Assembly: GCA_964513145.1 (NCBI GenBank)
Contig: CAZELK010000003.1
Span: 48,870-112,869, forward strand
Reading direction: 5' to 3'
DNA: 64,000 bases
Source: Candidatus Woesearchaeota archaeon
Lineage (GTDB): Archaea; Nanobdellota; Nanobdellia; SCGC-AAA011-G17; JACPIM01
The stretch's first letter is position 1, and every line of letters begins with the position of its first letter. Under the pieces are notes generated by a model that did not search any database, was not told the DNA's origin, and saw only the letters and a list, made by a program, of their open reading frames with translations. The translations under genes and the position numbers were made by a program. Of the stretch, positions 4,664 to 64,000 are shown piece after piece.

Positions 4664-5063
4664 TATTAGAAATTTAATTTTTGTATTTTAATATATTTCT
4701 ATCTAGAAAGAATTTTTTATTAATAATTTTAGAATTAAAAAAATAAAAAAACATAGGTAATTGGCTTGTATTTTATTTTTGGGCTATTAGTAACTGCAAG
4801 CTGAATACGTCGCCGAAGCTTCGTACTTACACTTCAGTCCTATCAAACTCATGTTCTTTGAGCGCCCTATATCTCTTTTCAAGTATAGCTTCCTCCTTAG
4901 ATGCTTTCAGGAGTTATCTATTAGAGCGTAGCTGCTCGGCCTGCCTTGTCAGACAACCGATACACCAGAGGCTCCGAATCATTGTTCCTCTCGTACTAAA
5001 TGATCCTTACCTTCAGATATTAAGCACTTCCAGTAGATATAATCCAAACTGTCTCACAACGTT

Positions 5064-5150
5064 ATGTTAAACGGGAGGAATTGAACCTCGCTTCGGCAAA
5101 TACATAGAGATGTTTTAATTTGCTTATGTATTTGCTTACAACCGTTGCTT
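5064..5150 (-). other. intron-like insertion (about 87 nt) in 23S domain V between GAGCTGGGTT and AACGTTGTGAGACAG (A-loop / helix 92-93 region)
   Basis: Canonical GGGTTTAGAACGTCGTGAGACAG is interrupted. The insert contains an 11-bp hairpin GCAAATACATA/TATGTATTTGC and AACGG/CCGTT at its ends. Confidence 0.55.
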
Positions 5151-5204
5151 AACCCAGCTCACGAACCATTTTAATGGGTGAACACCCCCACCCTTGGCTG
5201 CCTA

Positions 5205-5394
5205 CAGTTCGAAGGACAATTCGTGAAAATAGTTTTCCTTAAAGTCAAAATATTAGTGATTAATTTAATATAGTTCTAAATAGTTCTCAAATTAACATAC
5301 TAATTTTTAGACTTCTAAGTAATAGATATCGGAAATAAAAGACATTTTGACTTGAAAAACTATTGTTCGTATGATTGTCCTTCGACATTCTGCA
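5205..5394 (-). other. intron-like insertion or expansion (about 190 nt, very AT-rich) in the 23S 3' domain within the GGCTG...CAGCC helix loop
   Basis: Closed by a perfect 12-bp inverted repeat TCGAAGGACAAT/ATTGTCCTTCGA, with outer CAG/CTG pairing. Flanking rRNA sequence GTGGCTG / TAGGCAGCCAAGGGT is conserved. A further 31-nt hairpin insert sits at 5401-5432. Confidence 0.5.
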
Positions 5395-7034
5395 CAGCCA
5401 CTATATTGATACAAGAATTAACTTTATATCATGGATATGGTGAGCCGACGTCGAAGTAGCAAACAGCGCCATCGATATGAGCTCTTAGGCGCTACGACTC
5501 AGTTCTAGGGATCTAAGAGAAAATTTTTGATCTCTAAGATTATCCCCGAGATAGCTTTTCTGTCATACCTAGCCCCTATTAATAAGGACATAGGGGTTCG
5601 CTAGACCAGACTTTCGTCTCTGGATTTTTTAATAGTCAAAATCCAGTCAGGCCAACTTTTGCTCTTGCACTCTTCAGAAGATTTCCAAACTTCTTGAGTT
5701 GACCTTAGGGCCCTGTTGATATCTTTTCAACAGGGTGCCGCCCCAGCCAAACTGTCCAACTGCTGCTGTCCCAACTTTCGTTGGTAAGTAACATAAATTC
5801 TACAGAGTGGTATTTCAATTTTGTCTATCCTTAACCTAGCAGCTAAGGCATAGCGACTACCACCTATACTACACAGTAGAACATATATCACAACAACAGT
5901 CTACAGTAAAGTTCTACGGGGTCTTTTCTTCCCGCTGGAAGTCTCTGGCCTGCACACCAGAAGGGTATTTTCAGTGGATACTAACTAGGGACAGTGCGGA
6001 TCTCGTTACGCCATTCATGCGCGTCGTCATTCAAACGACAAGGTACAACGATATCATTAATCTCATTTCTCAGATTCAACTTTTCAGTTCAAAATGTGAA
6101 AGATATTTTTTGTTTAACAAACCCAAGGCAATTCTCTTAGATGAATGGCTTTTTCATCAAAATCTATAGCGAGATTAATGATAATTTCGCTACCTTAAGA
6201 GAATTATAGTCTAGAATTGTTAAAGATTTTTCTTACAACAAATATTCCCGCCGTTTACAAGTCCTTAGCCTCCTTGAAAAGAGGTTTTAGATACTTGCAC
6301 TGGGCAGACGTCACGTCTCATACACATCATTGCTGACTTGCGAGACGTTACGTTTTTGTTAAACAGTCGGACCCGCCTAGTCACTGCGCCCTGTAATTGC
6401 AGTTAGAAACTACAACCGCAGGGATTCCTTCTACCAAAGGTACGGAACTAAATTGCCGATTTCCCTTAGCTAGTTTACACCATCATACCTTAGGCTTCTC
6501 ACCTAGAGTACCTGTGTTGGTTCTGGGTATAATTATTCAAGATCCTTTTTAATTTCATTTTCACGGACTCCAGGCATCAACCAAATGGACCATAAGGTCC
6601 ACTATTCTTAAAATTAATCAAGTTCTCACCATTACGGTACTTCCTTGATTTGTTTTAATTAACATCCAAGACAATAGATGTTGGCTTAGCCCAAAATGTC
6701 TGAAACTAAACTTGTGTTACCACGCGTACTTGAATAGTAAAGGAATATTAACCTTTTTCCCATTCCCTAAGACCTATTAGGCCTTTGGTTAGGATTAACT
6801 TACTCTTAGCTGATTTGCATTGCTAAGAAACCCTTACTCTTACGGTATCAGGGAGTCTTACCCTGTATTGCTCCTACTACTACCAGGATTCTCATTTTTA
6901 TTAGGTCCACTATTTCTTTCGAAAAAGCTTCTACCCTAACAAAGCGCCTACCTACCACATAAGTTCTTTACTTAGTCTATAGTATCGGTAACTGATTTAG
7001 CCCCGTCCATCTTCAGGGCATATAACCTTGACAG

Positions 7035-7077
<43 letters not shown>

Positions 7078-8348
7078 TACCTCCCTGCTGTCTCTGGTTA
7101 TACACGCCTTTTACCCTTTAACACTTAATCAGTATTTAGGGACCTTAACTATAGTCTGGGTTGTTCCCCTCTCGCGATATAAGCTTAACCCACATCGCTT
7201 TTTCCTAAGGTCTCAGATGACAAAATATTCGGAGTTGGACGAAGAGGGGAGGAATTTCTTCCCCTTACCCCTAAATCCGTAGCTCTACAATTTTATCTAT
7301 CTCACTTAAGACTAGACTGAGGCCTATTTCGGTAGGAACCAGCTATAACCAGTCTCGATTGGCTTTTCACCCCTAATCTAAGGTTATACAAACAGATTTA
7401 CACTAGAACTGCTTCAGGCCTCCACAAGGTTTTACCCCTGCTTCACCTTACCCTAGAATAGATCGACTGGATTCGGGTAGCATCCAAGTGACTATAGGCA
7501 CTTTCATACCTAACCCCTCCTTGAAAAGTGTGGGTTTTTGGTTTCCCTTCAAGTTCAAACTGAAAAGTTTTTACTTTCGCCACTTAAATGCACTCCCTGG
7601 CTCGTTATTCGAAACGCACGATACAACTCCGAAGAGCAGTATCATTCTGTATTCATTAGGTTTCAGGATCTTTTCACTCCATGTTAAAGGTTCTTTTCAA
7701 CTTTCCTTCGCAGTACTCTTTGCTATCGGTCTCAAGTTATATTTAGAGTTGGAAGTTAATAGCTCCCACATTCACACCCCATATCCGAGGAGTGCTACTC
7801 TGGATACCTCGCAAGTCTATTAATCTGCTCTACAGGACTATCACCTTCTATGATGTCTTTTTCCAAAGAACTTTGAGCAGAATTAATTAAGATCAAAAGC
7901 AAGGTCCAAACACTACATTTCTATTTTATTTCTAAAATAGATTCAGTTTGCTCTATGTCGTTTTTTCTCGCTGATACTCACGACATCTATTTGATTTCTT
8001 TTCCTCCAGGTACTAAGACGTTTCAATTCCCCAGGTTCCCAATCTTTTCAGATTTAATGAGAAGTCTCATTCAGAAATCTCCAGTTCACAAGTTGCATGC
8101 ACTTCGCTGGAGCTTATCACAGCTTGCCATGTCCTTCTTCGGAACTTGAGCCAAGTCATCCACCTAATGAAGTAGGAAAAATACAGGCCAATTACCTATG
8201 CACGGAACTATATAAAAATAATTCCCTTGACCCAAAAAAATTTCTTTTTCTGAGCTGCATTTTAAACTTTTTAAAAAAAGTTTAATCAAAAATAAGAACC
8301 GAGGTTCTTTTCAACTCCTAAAAGTTGATTATATTTTTGAATATGAAA

Positions 8349-8495
8349 TGGACCCGTCGGGATGTTCATTACTTTTAATTTCTCAAAAGTTTATTTTGAA
8401 CCCGAGGCCCCTGCCTTGCAAGGGCAGTGCTCTATTGCCCCAAACTTTGTAAAAAGTTTTGATCAAATTATTTGACCAGACTGAGCTACGGGCCC
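8349..8495 (-). tRNA. tRNA-Ala(TGC) in the 16S-23S spacer, interrupted by two introns (D-loop about 40 nt; T-loop about 32 nt)
   Basis: Reverse complement GGGCCCGTAGCTCAGTCTGGTCA[..40 nt..]GAGCACTGCCCTTGCAAGGCAGGGGCCTCGGGTTCAAA[..32 nt..]TCCCGACGGGTCCA. G3:U70 identity pair; anticodon loop CTTGCAA; T-stem TCGGG/CCCGA. No encoded CCA. Confidence 0.8.
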
Positions 8496-8545
8496 ATTTA
8501 TTTAATTGAAATATGTAGGTTATTATGCATCTAGTAAAAAAATAA

Positions 8546-10090
<1,545 letters not shown>

Positions 10091-57363: not shown

Positions 57364-59247
57364 ATGAAAAGAGGTTTAATATTAGAAATGCTTTTATTTG
57401 TAATTCTATTTGTTTTAGATATTTATGCTTTAAATGTTGATCTTACTTCTCCTGTTGATAATGCAATATATGTAGACAGCAACACAGTTGTCTTTAAATG
57501 TAGAGCATCTGGACAAGATTTAAGATTTATAGAGCTATATAATAATATTGGCGGCTGGGGAAAAAAAGCAGAGGTATCAAACCCGCAAAATAATACTGAT
57601 GCAATTTTTTCTGTGAAAAATATAAGCAATGGTAACTATGCATGGAATTGTAAAGTAATAGACGGGGTTGAAGGGGTAAGATTTAGCAGTTTAAACAGGA
57701 GTTTTTCAATAAGTATTGCAGAAAATAATCCCCCAATTTATAGTGGCGGTTTAACACATCAGTCTTGGAATATGAATGCACAAAAAAATAATGCTTTTGA
57801 CCTGGATAATTTCTTTTCAGACCCTGACGGCAATACATTAACATATTCTGTAAATGGAAATGCAAATATAAATGTAAATATTGACTCAAATAATATAGTT
57901 AGTTTTTCCCAAGCACCAAACTGGTTTGGAACAGAACGCGTTTATTTTACAGCAAGTGATGGTAAGGAATCAATAAACTCAAATTATATTAATTTAACAG
58001 TTATAAAACTAGATAACCCGAATACAAACCAGCCGCCAGCATCATCTGGAAATACTCAGCCAAAAATAGAGCCAAAAATACCAGATCAAAACAAAAGCAA
58101 GGATAGTAGTTTTTGGTTCCTGGATTTAATAAATTATGCAAAAGATAATGAAGAAGACGCAAATAAATTAAACTGGTCAGTTGAAAGCGTTGATACGAAC
58201 CTTATTAAAGTAGACATAGATAACACAAACAAAAGGGCAAAATTTACAATAAAAAAGCCAGGTTCTGATGCTGTATCATTTATTTTAACAGATAGTTCTG
58301 GTCTAAGTGCCAGTCAAAACGTAAAAATTACAATTTACGAAAGTAAGGAAAACACTGATTCTGATTTTGGTGAACTTGTTCAAGAAACTAAAGATTCATC
58401 ATCAAGTTTGGAAATAAAATCACATTCCCCATTAGATAAAGAAATAACATTGTCTCAAAATCAGGTAATGGCTTTTACAGTTGATTTGACAATACAGGGT
58501 GATATAGAGTGGTATCTGGATAATACAATAATCCCTGGTGAAACTAAAAACTATTTCAGCTTTAATTCTGTTGAAGAAGGTGCACATAATCTGACAGTGT
58601 ATGTAAGTGACTTGGACAAGACAGTTTCAAATAGCTGGGATATAATAGTAAAAAAATATGAACAAAAAGAAGTTACTGAAATTAAAGCACAGATTTGCGG
58701 AAATAATGTAGCTGAAGAAAATGAAAATTGTTCTAATTGTGAAGCAGATATAAAATGTCAAAGTAATCAAATTTGTGAAAGCGGAATATGCAAAGAAAAG
58801 AGTTTCTGGTCAATAACAGGGAATGTCGTAAGTGACCTGGGAAATAAAATAACCAGCAATGTAAAAAAAACAATACTTTATCCTATTGCTGGTTTATTTG
58901 CAGTTGCTCTTATAGGTGTTTTAATGATCAGAAGAAGAAATAAAAAAAAATACTCCCAGCATTTAAAAGAATTTGAAGAGAAAAAAGGCTTTTTTAAAAA
59001 ACTGCAAAAAAAATTAAGAGATTTTGATACTAAAAGAAAGCAAAAAAAAGCAGATAAAATAAATCTGACAAATCTGGAAAGCAAAAAAATAGAAGAAGTA
59101 AAAACATTTGCTCCGAGCGTAAATTCAATTTCTGGATTTATTAAAGAAAGCATGAATAATGGGCATTCTAAAAAAGCAATAAAAAAAGCCTTAAGAGAAA
59201 AAGGCTGGTCTAGAATACAAATCTGGAAAGCTTTTAAAAAAACATAA
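57364..59247 (+). CDS. large cell-surface protein with Ig-like/Cys-knot regions and C-terminal TM plus Lys-rich tail
   Basis: Signal peptide; EGF-like CGNNVAEENENCSNCEADIKCQSNQICESGICKE; TM ILYPIAGLFAVALIGVLMI then RRRNKKK. Confidence 0.5.
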   Translation: MKRGLILEMLLFVILFVLDIYALNVDLTSPVDNAIYVDSNTVVFKCRASGQDLRFIELYNNIGGWGKKAEVSNPQNNTDAIFSVKNISNGNYAWNCKVIDGVEGVRFSSLNRSFSISIAENNPPIYSGGLTHQSWNMNAQKNNAFDLDNFFSDPDGNTLTYSVNGNANINVNIDSNNIVSFSQAPNWFGTERVYFTASDGKESINSNYINLTVIKLDNPNTNQPPASSGNTQPKIEPKIPDQNKSKDSSFWFLDLINYAKDNEEDANKLNWSVESVDTNLIKVDIDNTNKRAKFTIKKPGSDAVSFILTDSSGLSASQNVKITIYESKENTDSDFGELVQETKDSSSSLEIKSHSPLDKEITLSQNQVMAFTVDLTIQGDIEWYLDNTIIPGETKNYFSFNSVEEGAHNLTVYVSDLDKTVSNSWDIIVKKYEQKEVTEIKAQICGNNVAEENENCSNCEADIKCQSNQICESGICKEKSFWSITGNVVSDLGNKITSNVKKTILYPIAGLFAVALIGVLMIRRRNKKKYSQHLKEFEEKKGFFKKLQKKLRDFDTKRKQKKADKINLTNLESKKIEEVKTFAPSVNSISGFIKESMNNGHSKKAIKKALREKGWSRIQIWKAFKKT

Positions 59248-59326: not shown

Positions 59327-59367
59327 CTTCACTTAGAGAAAACTCTAAGTGGCGAAGTCAGGTTTTT
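59327..59367 (+). terminator. long hairpin followed by a T5 run downstream of the surface-protein gene
   Basis: CTTCACTTAGAG-AAAA-CTCTAAGTGGCGAAG, then TCAGGTTTTT. Confidence 0.35.
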
Positions 59368-59487
59368 ACCTATACCAACGACATAAAGTGGAATCTCATT
59401 TTCTGTCAAGTCAAGAATCTCAGCAATAGAATCATTCACAAAACCACTAACTGAACATGAACCTAAACCTAGCTCTGCACAAACAAG

Positions 59488-59510
59488 ATGCATGTTTTGA
59501 GCCATGCATC
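59488..59510 (-). terminator. hairpin downstream of the minus-strand peptidase gene
   Basis: GATGCATG-TTTTGAGC-CATGCATC, perfect 8-bp inverted repeat about 30 nt past the stop at 59542. Confidence 0.3.
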
Positions 59511-59541: not shown

Positions 59542-60168
59542 TTAATTCGATTCAAAAATAGAGATTTCTCCAAAATATATTTGTTTTTTTCCGTTAATAA
59601 AAATACCTGATCCTTCTGGGATAGCTATAATTTTTATATCTTCATTCAAGTTTGAAAAAATTAATTTGTCTTGATTTGTATTATAATGTGGCCAAATATT
59701 TCTATTGTTTAATAAATCTAAGGATTTAAGATCTGTTAAATTTACAATATTTTCATCTCCTGCATCTTTTGCTATAGATATGTCTTTACCAAAAATTATT
59801 GCTCCTGCACTTGCTCCGTAAACAACACCCATTTCATTTTTTATATATTTGTTTAATAAACCCAAAAAACTGCTATCCTTTAAATCCTTCAATAAACTAA
59901 ATGTATTTCCACCCCCGATAAAAATACCTCCAAATTCATTGATCTCTTTTAGAGATTTATTGTTCAAATCTGTCCACATTATTATTTCTCGCTTAAATCC
60001 CGCATCAGAGAATACTTTTTGTATCCATAAATAACATTCTCTAAATAGTCTGGTTTTTTTGGCAATGGGAATATAAAGTATTTTTTTATTTCCAATTAGG
60101 TTTATGAACAGTTTATCTGTTTTCTTAGTTTTTTTTGGATCTCCTCCACCAGATAATATTAATTTCAT
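59542..60168 (-). CDS. peptidase S51 (peptidase E / cyanophycinase-like)
   Basis: MKLILSGGG... N-terminus and the GASAGA nucleophile-elbow motif. Confidence 0.5.
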   Translation of the reverse strand: MKLILSGGGDPKKTKKTDKLFINLIGNKKILYIPIAKKTRLFRECYLWIQKVFSDAGFKREIIMWTDLNNKSLKEINEFGGIFIGGGNTFSLLKDLKDSSFLGLLNKYIKNEMGVVYGASAGAIIFGKDISIAKDAGDENIVNLTDLKSLDLLNNRNIWPHYNTNQDKLIFSNLNEDIKIIAIPEGSGIFINGKKQIYFGEISIFESN

Positions 60169-60266: not shown

Positions 60267-61631
60267 ATGGAATATTTTATAAAGTGGCCATTTGGATCTA
60301 AAGGACACTACCATTTTCCTAATGGAATTTCTCCAGTTTTGATGGATTTTTTAGTTAGAGAAAGATTGCAGAGAGGAGAGGACTTGATTTTTGTTCATGA
60401 TTCGTGGAATGTTCAGGGAAAATATACGGATTACAAAGCTATTTCACAATTAACTGGGTTAAGGGAAGAAGAAATCAATATCAACTATAGAAAGATATTA
60501 AATTCTCATCTGCCAGAAATTGTAGCTTTAGGGAGAGAAATAGCTAACTCTAATATTAAAAAATCAAAAAACTTGAAAGATAAGCTCGGTCTGCTTCCTA
60601 GCGGAATTTATCTTGAAGGAGAACTAAGAAGTCCTCTTGAATTTAGAGATGACTCATTAGATTCATGGAAGATCGCTCAACAGAGGTTTCTTCAATTGTA
60701 TGAAAATGATTTTATATATTGGAACAATGATTCACAAAATCCAGAATTTTTTTTGAATATAAAGAAACTTATGAGAAGAGTTCCTTTTGAAAAATTAACA
60801 GAAAATATGCATTTACCAGATTTTGCTCTAAAACAATTTAGAAATGCTTATTATGTTTATGATAGAGACATGCCCATGTCAACAATTAGGGCATATGGGA
60901 CTCCAATTCCTTTGATTATATCAGATAAAAATTTAAGCGTTCCAAATCTAGAAGAGTTACCTATTGAAACAAGACATGAAGAAGGAAAAATTATTGGACC
61001 CCCTGTGGTAATAAAACCGCTGTTTAATTGTTATTTCATTCAAGATGTTATCAGAGAACAAGCCCAAGTTCCTCCTAGAGATATTATTACATGTAATGAT
61101 CAAAGCCTTATAACTCGCTTCAATTTTCCGCAAGCAATGTTGACTACTTATTTTGGGAGAGATTATCACCAGAACGTTTTTTTTAATGACTTACTAGTTG
61201 ATGATAAGGGAGAAAGATATAGTTTTAAGAGTAATGTCATCCTGTCTTTAGAAGAATTAACAGAAAACGGGCCAGCACTAGCCAGATTTTTAATAGCGAG
61301 AAATACTCGTTTAGAAGGATCTAAATTAAGGTTTGAAGATAATAGAACGACATTTAGGAAACTAAAGAAAGCCGTCTCTCAAATTAAAACAAAAAAAGTA
61401 TTTTCACAAGATGATAAAAGACAAATTTTTTCAAAAATGTTCAAAGAAAACATTACAGATTTAGATAGGGTATATCAAACGATAGCAGAAACGGGGGAAG
61501 TTTGTAGGACCCTAAATTTTTTAACAGATTACATTATGCAGGCATCCAAACTAAAAGGAGATACTATACCATGCTCGGTTAAGAAGGCCATAAACCACTT
61601 AGAGTCAATTATTTTGTCTATTCAAAGTTAA
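60267..61631 (+). CDS. hypothetical protein (454 aa)
   Basis: Long ORF; no motif recognised. Confidence 0.45.
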   Translation: MEYFIKWPFGSKGHYHFPNGISPVLMDFLVRERLQRGEDLIFVHDSWNVQGKYTDYKAISQLTGLREEEININYRKILNSHLPEIVALGREIANSNIKKSKNLKDKLGLLPSGIYLEGELRSPLEFRDDSLDSWKIAQQRFLQLYENDFIYWNNDSQNPEFFLNIKKLMRRVPFEKLTENMHLPDFALKQFRNAYYVYDRDMPMSTIRAYGTPIPLIISDKNLSVPNLEELPIETRHEEGKIIGPPVVIKPLFNCYFIQDVIREQAQVPPRDIITCNDQSLITRFNFPQAMLTTYFGRDYHQNVFFNDLLVDDKGERYSFKSNVILSLEELTENGPALARFLIARNTRLEGSKLRFEDNRTTFRKLKKAVSQIKTKKVFSQDDKRQIFSKMFKENITDLDRVYQTIAETGEVCRTLNFLTDYIMQASKLKGDTIPCSVKKAINHLESIILSIQS

Positions 61632-62253
61632 TCTTGTTAACTTCGTCAATAAATTTATTTTTGCTCAAATTTCCATCTAGCATATATGCCTTTCTTGGAA
61701 CTTGGAGGACATTTTTAAATTTAATAAGTTTTTTGTATATTTTCATAGATTTTTTAATTTTTTTTCTTTTTATAATCCTCTGATATGCTTTTTCTAAATC
61801 AACTTTAATATAGATTACTATTGGAATATAACTATGCTCTTTTGCCATTTCTTTTAATCTATTCCTATACTTAACTAAATCGCTATTACTATCAGAAATA
61901 AGGTTGATATTTCTCATCATTAATAATTTAAACATTTCTTTTTGTATAACAAACAAATCTTTTAATGAAAAATCACACTTTATTTTAATTAAGTAATTTT
62001 TAATACTATCTGTAGAAATTTTAATAAAATTAAACTTTTTTTCCAATTCTTGTGAGAGAGTAGTTTTCCCGCTTCCCGGGATACTTGCTAGAATAATAAG
62101 ATAGTTATTTTTGAGCCTGCCTTCTTTAATTCTAATATTCTGGATTAAATTTCTTGCTATTAAATGCATCTCATTTCTTTTCATTTTTACTTTTGATATA
62201 ATCATCCAATAATTCTTCAGAAAGTCTTTCAATAAAATTAATTGCCCACTCAA
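61618..62253 (-). CDS. P-loop kinase (polynucleotide/gluconate kinase-like AAA_33-type); start probably at an internal Met
   Basis: ILASIPGSGKTTLSQEL Walker A. The annotated start overlaps the upstream gene by 83 nt. MKRNEMH or MHLIARN are more likely starts. Confidence 0.55.
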   Translation of the reverse strand: MSGQLILLKDFLKNYWMIISKVKMKRNEMHLIARNLIQNIRIKEGRLKNNYLIILASIPGSGKTTLSQELEKKFNFIKISTDSIKNYLIKIKCDFSLKDLFVIQKEMFKLLMMRNINLISDSNSDLVKYRNRLKEMAKEHSYIPIVIYIKVDLEKAYQRIIKRKKIKKSMKIYKKLIKFKNVLQVPRKAYMLDGNLSKNKFIDEVNKINFE

Positions 62254-62929
62254 AGGTTTTTTCTGTTATGTTATATTCTTTCCTTTTTAATTCAAAGCAT
62301 TTCTTAACAACATCTAAGTTATTTAAATTCGAAAATTCATATAAGAATTTTTTTTCTACTTCAGCATCTCTATAGATGAATATTCTTTTATAAATCAAAG
62401 CAAACTTACAGGCGTAAGTTACGAATTTAACGGCTTGTTTTTTAGCTTCCTTCAAAGAGTTAGAAGTGAGATATATTTTTCTAATCCTATATCCTAGAGT
62501 CAATAATAACTTTAGTGCTTCTTCAGGTAATTCGCCATAATCGATTTGTATATTTTTTAGGATATCTTTTCCATAAAGAAGACAGTCGTAGTATTTAATT
62601 TCAAATAAAAGTAATGCGTGTCGATATTTATGGGGAAATAATAAACTACTGATAACTTCTTCTTTAATTTCTTTTTTTGATATGATATTTGTATCAATCT
62701 TTCTACCGAATTTTTTCTCAGTATCTTTTATAGCACCTTTCAAATCTAATAAGTCGTTGTAATCTGATTTATTTACAAATATATTAAGGTCTATATCACT
62801 CTTTTTATTTATTGCATTTTCGGCAAACGAACCCATTGTATAAATTGCTAATACATTATCTTTTAGTTTGTGCTTCTCAACAAGATACCTAGCAATTTTC
62901 ACTCCTTCTTTAATAGTCTTATTTAACAT
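62171..62929 (-). CDS. Pol-beta superfamily nucleotidyltransferase (KNTase/ANT-like with C-terminal helical domain)
   Basis: IYTMGSFAENAINKKSDIDLNIFV (GS...DxD). Confidence 0.6.
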   Translation of the reverse strand: MLNKTIKEGVKIARYLVEKHKLKDNVLAIYTMGSFAENAINKKSDIDLNIFVNKSDYNDLLDLKGAIKDTEKKFGRKIDTNIISKKEIKEEVISSLLFPHKYRHALLLFEIKYYDCLLYGKDILKNIQIDYGELPEEALKLLLTLGYRIRKIYLTSNSLKEAKKQAVKFVTYACKFALIYKRIFIYRDAEVEKKFLYEFSNLNNLDVVKKCFELKRKEYNITEKTFEWAINFIERLSEELLDDYIKSKNEKK

Positions 62930-63468
62930 TTTAACTTATATATCTCTGCATTTTTTATTTTCATTCTTTCAATTGATGATCGGATATCTTTATTCTCTAA
63001 ATAGCCTTTCATTAATTTTAATATAGTTCCGTTGGATATAATTAGTGCCCTTTCTTTTTCATACCTTTTTTTAAAAAGATTCACAAATTTTTTAGCTCTA
63101 ATTAGAACTTCGTATAAACTCTCTCCATTTGGAGCTTTTCTCTCTTCATAAGATCCTTTAATCTTTTTCCAGTTTATTAATTTAGAATGTTCTCCAGTAA
63201 AGAAGCCATTATCTTTTTCACGAAGTAGTTTAAAGTACTTAACTTTTAATCCAAGTTTTTCTGAAATAATTTTAGACATTTCTTTAGCCCTAATTAAATC
63301 ACTTGAGAGTATTATTGAAAAATTATATTTTTTTAATCTGCTTATTCTTCTTCTTATTTGCAACACCCCTTTATAATTTAAAGACTCATTTGTTTGTCCC
63401 TGTATTAATTTTTTCTTGTTACTATCTGTTTCTCCATGCCTCATTATATAAAACTCCATTTTAATCAA
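62923..63468 (-). CDS. histidine phosphatase family protein (PGAM/SixA-like)
   Basis: N-terminal MRHGETDSN (RHGE catalytic motif). Confidence 0.7.
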   Translation of the reverse strand: MIKMEFYIMRHGETDSNKKKLIQGQTNESLNYKGVLQIRRRISRLKKYNFSIILSSDLIRAKEMSKIISEKLGLKVKYFKLLREKDNGFFTGEHSKLINWKKIKGSYEERKAPNGESLYEVLIRAKKFVNLFKKRYEKERALIISNGTILKLMKGYLENKDIRSSIERMKIKNAEIYKLKC

Positions 63469-64000
63469 AATATCCTATAGCATTACATTTAATATCAAGA
63501 TGATATTTTATTTTTCTCTTAATTTCTTTATTGATATTCACATTCTTTTCCTTTAGTTTTAGCATTATTCTTTTATAAAGAAATTTAAACTCTGGTTTGG
63601 AAAATACATAATGCCCTGAAATAATTGTCTTTTTAATATCGCTAATTTCTCTATCCTTGTGAATCAACCATTTTTTCCATTTGTTTGAGTTGACAGCCAT
63701 TCGAATAAAAGAATCCCTCTCCTTGTGCAATCTCTTCTTAGCTAAAATATTTAATATTTCTTTGGTATGTAATGTGCCAAATTCTGGACCAATATTCATA
63801 GAATGAACGCCAGCTTCTTTTATTTTTGATAAAGAGAGATTATCTAAATAGTCACAGTTATGAGCTTTCATTCTAACATTGTATCTCTCACATAATTCTA
63901 CTGCCATTCTAAGATTTTCGATTGGATAATTTGCTTTCTTTATTTCGCCTAAATTTTCTAATTCTTTTACTAATGTCCCTATTTGCGCCACAACAAAAAA
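63461..64000 (-). CDS. hypothetical protein, first gene of the cluster; N-terminus may lie beyond the window edge
   Basis: ORF reaches 63991 and could continue past 64000. 8-nt overlap with the phosphatase gene. Confidence 0.35.
   Translation of the reverse strand, partial: FFVVAQIGTLVKELENLGEIKKANYPIENLRMAVELCERYNVRMKAHNCDYLDNLSLSKIKEAGVHSMNIGPEFGTLHTKEILNILAKKRLHKERDSFIRMAVNSNKWKKWLIHKDREISDIKKTIISGHYVFSKPEFKFLYKRIMLKLKEKNVNINKEIKRKIKYHLDIKCNAIGYFD

Follow-up and report, generated by a model that had tools for sequence, protein, structure and literature searches.

Gene content and organization of the locus

Here we analyze a 64,000-nucleotide stretch of archaeal, Woesearchaeota-type DNA (hereafter the window), and in particular a tightly packed block near its right-hand end that encodes a P-loop kinase, a histidine phosphatase and a Pol-beta nucleotidyltransferase (NTase). 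The window has a GC content of ~28%, holds large- and small-subunit (LSU and SSU) rRNA at 4767-10089, and its relatives carry the label Candidatus Woesearchaeota. A preliminary description of this DNA had read four minus-strand genes as one module, with overlaps of 8, 7 and about 83 nt; these figures hold for the maximal open reading frames (ORFs), located at 63461-63991, 62923-63468, 62171-62929 and 61618-62253. When likely starts are used, the junctions become a 1-nt gap between the first gene and the phosphatase, a 7-nt overlap between phosphatase and NTase, and a 14-nt overlap between NTase and kinase. The last follows from a likely kinase start at ATG 62184, in agreement with the earlier suspicion that the 83-nt overlap reflects a downstream real start.

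The histidine phosphatase (62923..63459, minus strand, 178 aa) belongs to His_Phos_1 (PF00300, E=3.5e-32), and its likely start at ATG 63459 (MEFYIMRHGET) is agreed by orthologue starts and gene callers. The NTase (62171..62929, minus strand, 252 aa) consists of an N-terminal NTase domain of the Polbeta/NTP_transf_2 type and a C-terminal helical domain, and the kinase (61618..62184, minus strand, 188 aa) is of the AAA_33/PSTK/zeta type according to Pfam, a family profile searched against PDB and an AlphaFold2 (AF2) model. Pfam agrees with the earlier assignment of all three enzymes. Two further genes lie alongside: a Peptidase_S51-type serine hydrolase with a GASAG nucleophile elbow (59542..60168, minus strand, 208 aa; PF03575, 2.8e-28) and a truncated class-Ia aminoacyl-tRNA synthetase (aaRS)-like gene (60267..61631, plus strand, 454 aa; family profile against PDB, IleRS at 1.1e-11), which is convergent with the kinase and overlaps its 3' end by 14 nt.

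Close spacing is frequent in such genomes (in one relative, L003, distances of ≤6 nt also separate 3 of 10 adjacent same-strand gene pairs that lie outside the module), so gene overlap alone is weak evidence for a unit. Stronger evidence comes from synteny in all seven lineages compared below and from domain fusions.

Conservation of the block and its gene family

We compared seven distinct lineages, across which NTase identity falls from 82% down to 40% and of which one (L020) has a GC content of 47% versus 28%. Neighbourhood conservation in relatives had been proposed as a check on the module, and this comparison places the phosphatase, NTase, kinase and S51 hydrolase together in all seven. 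The aaRS-like gene (454 aa, convergent) is nearby in five lineages and an unassigned 369-aa protein, here called famX, in the other two; ribulose-phosphate 3-epimerase (Rpe) is found in five, once truncated, and a GatZ-like gene in a single one. The flanks on both sides differ between lineages while the block persists, and some of them hold housekeeping genes (Rpe, ribosomal proteins, RNA polymerase subunits). In L020 the gene order is rearranged to Cupin_2, NTase, kinase, S51 hydrolase and phosphatase, with overlapping junctions; here the S51 gene sits between kinase and phosphatase and overlaps them by 4 and 8 nt. Adjacent to the trio in every lineage, the S51 hydrolase is a conserved fourth member. 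Of the four-gene module as originally drawn, the three assigned enzymes thus stand as a real co-inherited unit; the first gene does not belong to it, and the boundaries were set too narrowly, with two conserved partners (the S51 hydrolase and the class-Ia aaRS-like gene) lying outside them.

That first gene (63461..64000, minus strand) is represented in the window by the C-terminal 179 codons of 378: it has its own stop at 63461 and no upstream stop before the window edge, and a Logan contig (L001) that matches the window without differences over 4577 nt carries the full-length gene at L001:864-2000, which bears out the possibility, raised early on, that the window edge truncates it. The protein matches PF08013 (GatZ_KbaZ-like, TIM barrel; E=5e-8, 32.4 bits against a cut-off of 26.7 bits), scores 26 bits against the NCBIfam equivalog KbaZ (cut-off 707) and 24 against AgaZ (cut-off 569) with E-values of 5e-6 to 1e-5, and gave no hit when searched singly against PDB sequences. 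By sequence it appears to be a weak, family-level relative only of GatZ/KbaZ, a sugar-phosphate aldolase/epimerase family. Its presence in one of seven lineages, and absence from the other six, makes it a lineage-specific accessory outside the core. Rpe lies divergently upstream of it, and the pair suggests a ketose-phosphate feedstock in the window's lineage.

Four more distant loci (L030, L031, L033 and L035) join the seven window-type lineages to give 11 related loci in total. L030 holds famX, Cupin_2, a HisPhos-NTase fusion and an AAA_33 kinase; L031 an IMPase-APH phosphatase-kinase fusion (the IMPase half FBPase/CysQ-like, the APH half homoserine-kinase-like), an NTase-esterase fusion, a radical SAM enzyme and a MetRS-like 418-aa protein; L033 a Nudix-NTase-HAD fusion, an alpha/beta hydrolase and an aaRS-like 385-aa protein; and L035 an aaRS-like 418-aa protein, an NTase and an alpha/beta hydrolase. 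Within the NTase family we found HisPhos-NTase (P0037), NTase-HAD (P0060), Nudix-NTase-HAD (P0080), NTase-Nudix (P0097) and NTase-alpha/beta-hydrolase (P0068, P0075) fusions. The alpha/beta-hydrolase partners fall into a single carboxylesterase-like family, with a Ser/Cys-Asp-His triad. A class-I aaRS-like protein stands beside the NTase in 8 of the 11 loci (five window-type, plus L031, L033 and L035), and famX in the other three. Accessory neighbours across variants are GatZ-like, Rpe, Cupin_2, SDR, radical SAM and cyclodipeptide synthase (CDPS) proteins, most of them from families with sugar- or metabolite-modifying members. All 11 loci lack RNA ligase, RtcB and Hen1, and in none of them is there a methyltransferase in or next to the module.

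Could these be unrelated housekeeping enzymes, adjacent through genome compaction and shared ancestry? Close spacing is general in these genomes, most loci come from one archaeal clade, the aaRS-like gene can stand alone, and Rpe probably does no more than serve the pentose-phosphate metabolism of the cell. However, the block is kept while its flanks change, L020 retains the gene set despite reordering, and neither the HisPhos-NTase, NTase-HAD and NTase-hydrolase fusions nor the non-homologous replacements would be expected of unrelated neighbours. The fusions, together with the swap of the kinase from a P-loop to an APH fold and of the phosphatase from HisPhos to HAD to IMPase, point to a genuine functional system in which one substrate undergoes phosphorylation, dephosphorylation, nucleotidyl transfer and hydrolysis of an ester or amide, and we consider the lack of any common function improbable.

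The NTase family is small. An exhaustive profile search of 1.84 billion cluster representatives retrieved 22, 57 and 122 at E≤1e-30, 1e-10 and 1e-3, respectively, and scans of genomes and metagenomes with the NTase alignment gave 4 and 5 loci, all of types already in hand; the broad family alignment is too divergent for a locus scan. The plasmids, phages and viral contigs searched gave no match. One 2-kb contig binned as Ignavibacterium (L018, JAIMAZ010000430.1) carries a Woesearchaeota-type NTase at 61% identity, which is probably a binning contaminant.

The core enzymes and their nearest relatives

The NTase matches Pol-beta families only (PF18765, Polbeta, and PF01909, NTP_transf_2; ~1e-10). 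Its catalytic set (G33-S34, D45, D47 and D79) is invariant in the close family, and of these residues G33, D45 and D47 are invariant family-wide; a signature F98-x-H100-x-x-R103 (FxH[KR]xR) marks the family, the whole of which shares G33, D45, D47, N81, F98, H100, R103, E110, G120 and K151. Single-protein searches against PDB sequences were of little use here (E=0.09 at best for the NTase, uninformative for the kinase), and family profiles were needed for informative ones. The AF2 model of the NTase (pLDDT 88) has ANT(9), ANT(4'), LinB and AadA as its top Foldseek matches (E 3.6e-6 to 1e-4, TM ~0.6, 0.61-0.64), with Hailong HalB and GlnE as weaker ones. Among the Pfam hits at E≤0.1, PF10127 (RlaP) is absent, and there is no ligase neighbour; the modelled fold indicates that the enzyme is not a covalent lysyl-NMP (nucleoside monophosphate) ligase or RNA ligase.

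Like ANT(9), AadA/ANT(3'')(9), ANT(4') and LinB, the module NTase is a two-domain protein of ~250 aa (Pol-beta plus helical C-terminal domain) with a GS...DxD...D arrangement. Unlike them, it has its own FxH[KR]xR signature and several conserved basic residues, and shares only 12-17% identity with them. Furthermore, the module NTase is chromosomal, in reduced archaeal genomes, among kinase, phosphatase, hydrolase and aaRS-like genes, with no plasmid match.

These likenesses bear on the suggestion, already made in the preliminary description, of an antibiotic-modification cassette, in which an ANT-like NTase and a CPT/zeta-like kinase would inactivate a toxic small molecule such as an antibiotic or form a toxin-immunity pair, and the phosphatase and hydrolase would undo or finish the modification. 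The fold is indeed nearest to aminoglycoside and lincosamide resistance NTases, the kinase matches Pfam Zeta_toxin, and there are weak NCBIfam matches to ANT(9)/ANT(3'') and MntA as well as weak PADLOC matches to an MNT-like domain (the candidate models PDC-S09 and PDC-M05A) and, for the kinase, VakA (5.9e-6). Yet these scores fall far under the family cut-offs (ANT_9 20.1 bits against 340; ANT(3'')-Ic 14 against 545), and against the PADLOC defence models no module protein has a significant match, the hits being weak and at domain level only. With mobile relatives absent from the plasmid, phage and viral sequences, the module sitting stably among housekeeping genes in reduced genomes, the family's basic residues H100, R103 and K151 speaking against a polycationic aminoglycoside, and the aaRS-like partner left unexplained, a conflict or resistance role seems a poor prospect, and mobile resistance or defence in particular is unlikely.

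The GlnE matches raise a different possibility, a protein-modification switch in which kinase, phosphatase and an AMPylating NTase (GlnE/DrrA-like) would regulate a neighbouring enzyme, for instance the hydrolase or the aaRS-like protein. The pairing of kinase and phosphatase recalls bifunctional regulators, but the GlnE domains rank only 35 and 48 with E>0.01, neither a target nor a sensor domain is evident, and the Nudix, HAD and esterase fusions suit metabolism better; we judge such a switch very improbable.

The kinase matches AAA_18, AAA_33 and Zeta_toxin in Pfam at ~1e-8, and KTI12 was also matched. It carries a Walker A motif (GIPGSGKTT), D59-x-x-K62, DSNSD and an RxxxR-like lid (RIIKR). 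Its family profile finds the PSTK kinase domain first among PDB entries (1.8e-9), followed by Pnkp1 (7.9e-5) and CthPnk (1.9e-4), and in NCBIfam it scores 1.3e-6 against PSTK (28 bits, cut-off 290.5) and 5e-4 against Pnkp TIGR04075 (18 bits, cut-off 750). As in PSTK and KTI12, the aligned region holds the Walker A motif, the catalytic Asp and the RxxxR-like lid, with 24% identity to PSTK in Foldseek; unlike PSTK, whose residues 5-143 of 259 alone are aligned, the module kinase is missing the C-terminal tRNA-binding domain, and the other structural neighbours of its AF2 model (pLDDT 92) are generic (adenylate kinase, gluconokinase and APS kinase, with CthPnk at rank 43).

For the phosphatase, the motif residues R7-H8-G, N14, R57 and E81 are present, and the family profile has phosphoserine phosphatase PspA as its best PDB match (1.4e-18), with CobC, PhoE and TIGAR also found. 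These nearest relatives are small-molecule phosphatases, which we count in favour of a small-molecule substrate.

With all three enzymes in view, the comparison first offered for this locus, RNA end-healing and sealing of the Pnkp/Hen1 type, can be weighed. There, the kinase would act on 5'-OH ends, the phosphatase on 2',3'-cyclic or 3'-phosphates, and the NTase would serve as ligase-like activator. The three chemistries are nominally there, and the module shares with Pnkp/Hen1 and Pnkp1-Rnl-Hen1 (PMC4411300) a P-loop kinase, of the broad clade that includes PNK, and a phosphatase, and with RlaP (PMC12776372) a Pol-beta NTase; the kinase also matches bacterial Pnkp weakly, as given above. But the NTase belongs to the Pol-beta superfamily and not to the covalent nucleotidyltransferases or ligases, nor is it a PF10127 protein as RlaP is. 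In contrast to Pnkp and T4 Pnk, with their metallophosphoesterase or HAD phosphatases, the module uses His_Phos_1, and PSTK, adenylate kinase and gluconokinase all match its kinase better than PNK does. Hen1, Rnl and RtcB occur in 0 of 11 loci. The original comparison is therefore not supported, and its chance of being right is very small in our view.

The hydrolase and synthetase-like partners

The conserved S51 hydrolase resembles PepE at 7.7e-19, under the cut-off. The aaRS-like protein, next to the module in five of seven lineages, aligns by profile to IleRS in two stretches only, residues 56-111 (the HIGH region) and 432-671 (the KMSKS half). Both motifs are degenerate (HIGH to H-[LF]-P-[NS], KMSKS to Y-S-F-K-[SG]), the CP1 editing domain of ~320 residues is gone, and an anticodon-binding domain is not recognisable by sequence in the aaRS-like proteins. 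It is thus reminiscent of MshC, MetRS paralogues and CDPS (PMC2922099), in being a paralogue of a class-I catalytic domain without normal tRNA-recognition modules in a metabolic neighbourhood; it differs from them in being class Ia (IleRS/LeuRS/MetRS-like), in its degenerate HIGH and KMSKS motifs and in its partners.

Where the aaRS-like gene is replaced, famX (369-375 aa) stands in its place (L003:10333-11442, L020:8661-9329 and L030:175-1302; the L003 and L030 members match at 4e-41). The resemblance of famX to class-Ia aaRS is at motif level only (a Zn knuckle, 'SRHxRD', 'LDxDFxW' and 'GSNHVAW'), and we do not claim homology. Comparison of famX with aaRS, by hhalign and by profile searches of PDB, gave no support, in a test that was powerless, as its positive control (the aaRS-like protein against LeuRS) also failed.

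In two differently arranged variants the module is flanked by a full-length LeuRS, on one side in the first (L014:6157-8781) and on the other in the second (L020:2174-4804); this could be coincidental or a relic of how the aaRS-like gene arose. One Woesearchaeota variant has a CDPS (L006:967-1716; PF16715, 1.4e-17) two genes upstream of the module, and the alpha/beta hydrolase beside this CDPS has Cys at the nucleophile position (GICFSG).

It is possible to assemble these partners into a tRNA acceptor-end system, in which the aaRS-like protein would bind tRNA, the NTase would add nucleotides to a damaged or immature 3' end in the manner of RlaP or MenT-type enzymes, kinase and phosphatase would process termini or, like PSTK, the aminoacyl moiety, and the hydrolase would deacylate. 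PSTK is the best match of the kinase in both PDB and NCBIfam, with KTI12 matched too, class-I aaRS-like proteins recur beside the NTase family, CDPS and LeuRS neighbour the module in some variants, and the conserved basic residues of the NTase (H100, R103 and K151 family-wide) suit an anionic substrate. Moreover, a tRNA-repair role has been demonstrated for the Pol-beta NTase RlaP (PMC12776372). Against this, the 188-aa kinase is without the tRNA-binding domain of PSTK, the NTase has no PF10127 match and a fold nearest to small-molecule ANTs, the aaRS-like proteins have degenerate HIGH and KMSKS motifs and no recognisable anticodon-binding domain, and no RNA ligase is present. We also know of no precedent for APH-fold and IMPase-fold replacements of kinase and phosphatase on RNA substrates. 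On balance, a tRNA-directed role appears rather unlikely.

A proposed small-molecule pathway

The evidence fits best a pathway of small-molecule phosphorylation, dephosphorylation and O-nucleotidylylation, for activation or salvage, built on the phosphatase/NTase/kinase core. This is our preferred reading, tentatively held at a little under an even chance; a small-molecule or nucleotide modification pathway had also been among the alternatives in the preliminary description. The module itself rests on its enzyme families, intact catalytic motifs, co-inheritance, fusions and the non-homologous replacement of kinase and phosphatase. For its assignment to small molecules, we draw on several lines: enzymes of the APH, IMPase and Nudix types typically act on small molecules, as do carboxylesterases and ANT-like NTases; the NTase model is nearest to the small-molecule O-nucleotidyltransferases ANT(9), AadA, ANT(4') and LinB; most accessory neighbours come from families with sugar- or metabolite-modifying members; and RNA ligase, RtcB and Hen1 are missing from all loci, as are plasmid, phage and viral-contig relatives from the searches.

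In such a pathway, the kinase would phosphorylate a hydroxyl-bearing metabolite (sugar-, sugar-phosphate- or nucleoside-like), the phosphatase would take the phosphate off another position of the same metabolite, and the NTase would then move NMP onto one of its hydroxyls. More speculatively, the aaRS paralogue might add an aminoacyl ester that the serine hydrolase removes, so that the pathway is possibly coupled to aminoacyl-ester chemistry. Precedent exists for class-I aaRS paralogues recruited to small-molecule amide or ester synthesis (PMC2922099). A more far-reaching version, which we think fairly unlikely, would make this a tRNA-independent pathway of ultra-small symbionts (DPANN and possibly the candidate phyla radiation, CPR), in which the aaRS paralogue aminoacylates a nucleotide-linked acceptor supplied by kinase, phosphatase and NTase, so that the product would be an aminoacylated nucleotide or sugar-nucleotide, which might for instance mimic the 3' end of aminoacyl-tRNA, and the hydrolase would serve as editor or releaser.

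Several points weigh against the small-molecule pathway. Every functional step is read from superfamily membership and context, and all sequences come from uncultivated organisms. HAD phosphatases and Nudix hydrolases also work on RNA ends, the role of known ANT-type enzymes is to inactivate drugs and not to build metabolites, and the known NDP-sugar synthases have, to our knowledge, other folds. The top sequence match of the kinase is PSTK, a tRNA-dependent kinase, and a PSTK-like kinase with aaRS-like neighbours and CDPS or LeuRS flanks also fits a tRNA-linked role; likewise, Pol-beta NTases such as RlaP act at RNA ends as well (PMC12776372). An aaRS-like orthologue (L028:10001-11365, 54% identity) lies on a 773-kb contig with no phosphatase, NTase, kinase or S51 gene nearby, and the aaRS-like gene is thus not strictly dependent on the trio. 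Finally, in the alignment the second core His of the window's phosphatase is Asn (ISNGT) where five orthologues read SHGT, and this phosphatase may, judging from that substitution, be catalytically weakened or repurposed. The Asn-for-His phosphatase occurs in the same lineage that gained the GatZ-like gene.

Kinase, phosphatase and NTase chemistries also come together in NDP-heptose synthesis (HldE/GmhB/HldC), MurNAc salvage (MupP/AmgK/MurU) and assembly of the cobamide nucleotide loop (CobU/CobC). The module encodes the same three chemistries, with sugar-phosphate enzymes (GatZ-like, Rpe) near the window's copy, and the step logic that we propose is that of NDP-heptose synthesis or MurNAc salvage carried out by unrelated folds. 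Its enzymes are not homologous to those of the three pathways, except for a distant similarity of the phosphatase to CobC (76.7 bits against a cut-off of 162.9); the Pol-beta fold of its NTase differs from those of known sugar-1-phosphate and cofactor NTases; and its S51 or alpha/beta hydrolase and aaRS paralogue have no counterpart there.

Three more specific assignments were considered and rejected. Assembly of the cobamide nucleotide loop itself fails for want of CobS or CobT and with CobC scoring under the cut-off; an analogy to PFK-2/FBPase-2 relies on a 6PF2K match of only 0.029 in a single relative; and salvage of CoA, FAD or NAD, attractive for its kinase, NTase, Nudix and phosphatase logic, has no family-level match.

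Other features of the window

Three observations concern other parts of the window. The LSU rRNA match (4767-8187, minus strand) spans 3421 nt compared with 2987 nt for the archaeal model, a surplus of ~430 nt that probably represents expansion or insertion segments; low-GC patches lie near 5100-5300 and 6100-6300, with no plausible intron-encoded ORF. A probable surface protein of 627 aa (57364-59247, plus strand) combines a signal-like segment at its N terminus with repeated regions rich in beta structure, a stretch rich in Cys, a single C-terminal transmembrane helix and a tail rich in Lys. A 58-aa ORF (59329-59505, minus strand), directly downstream of the S51 hydrolase, resembles a C-terminal nitroreductase fragment and is possibly what is left of a gene; in L014 the neighbourhood of the module includes a Nitroreductase gene.

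Significance for DPANN archaea and the nucleotidyltransferase family

All module proteins score below the curated equivalog and subfamily cut-offs, and a literature search for this gene combination found no description. The superfamilies of the individual parts are known, as are analogues of the step logic. The module occurs in DPANN archaea of the Woesearchaeota type; DPANN genomes are minimal, and a block of five genes that persists across lineages probably matters for a scavenging or host-dependent lifestyle. The NTase defines a very rare family whose partners are unusually informative, with three phosphatase folds, Nudix proteins, esterases and recurring class-I aaRS paralogues among them. 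If the module does make a new nucleotide-linked, possibly aminoacylated metabolite, aaRS paralogues and ANT-type NTases would have gained a new role, in primary or symbiosis-related metabolism, and 'resistance-type' NTases would have endogenous metabolic relatives.

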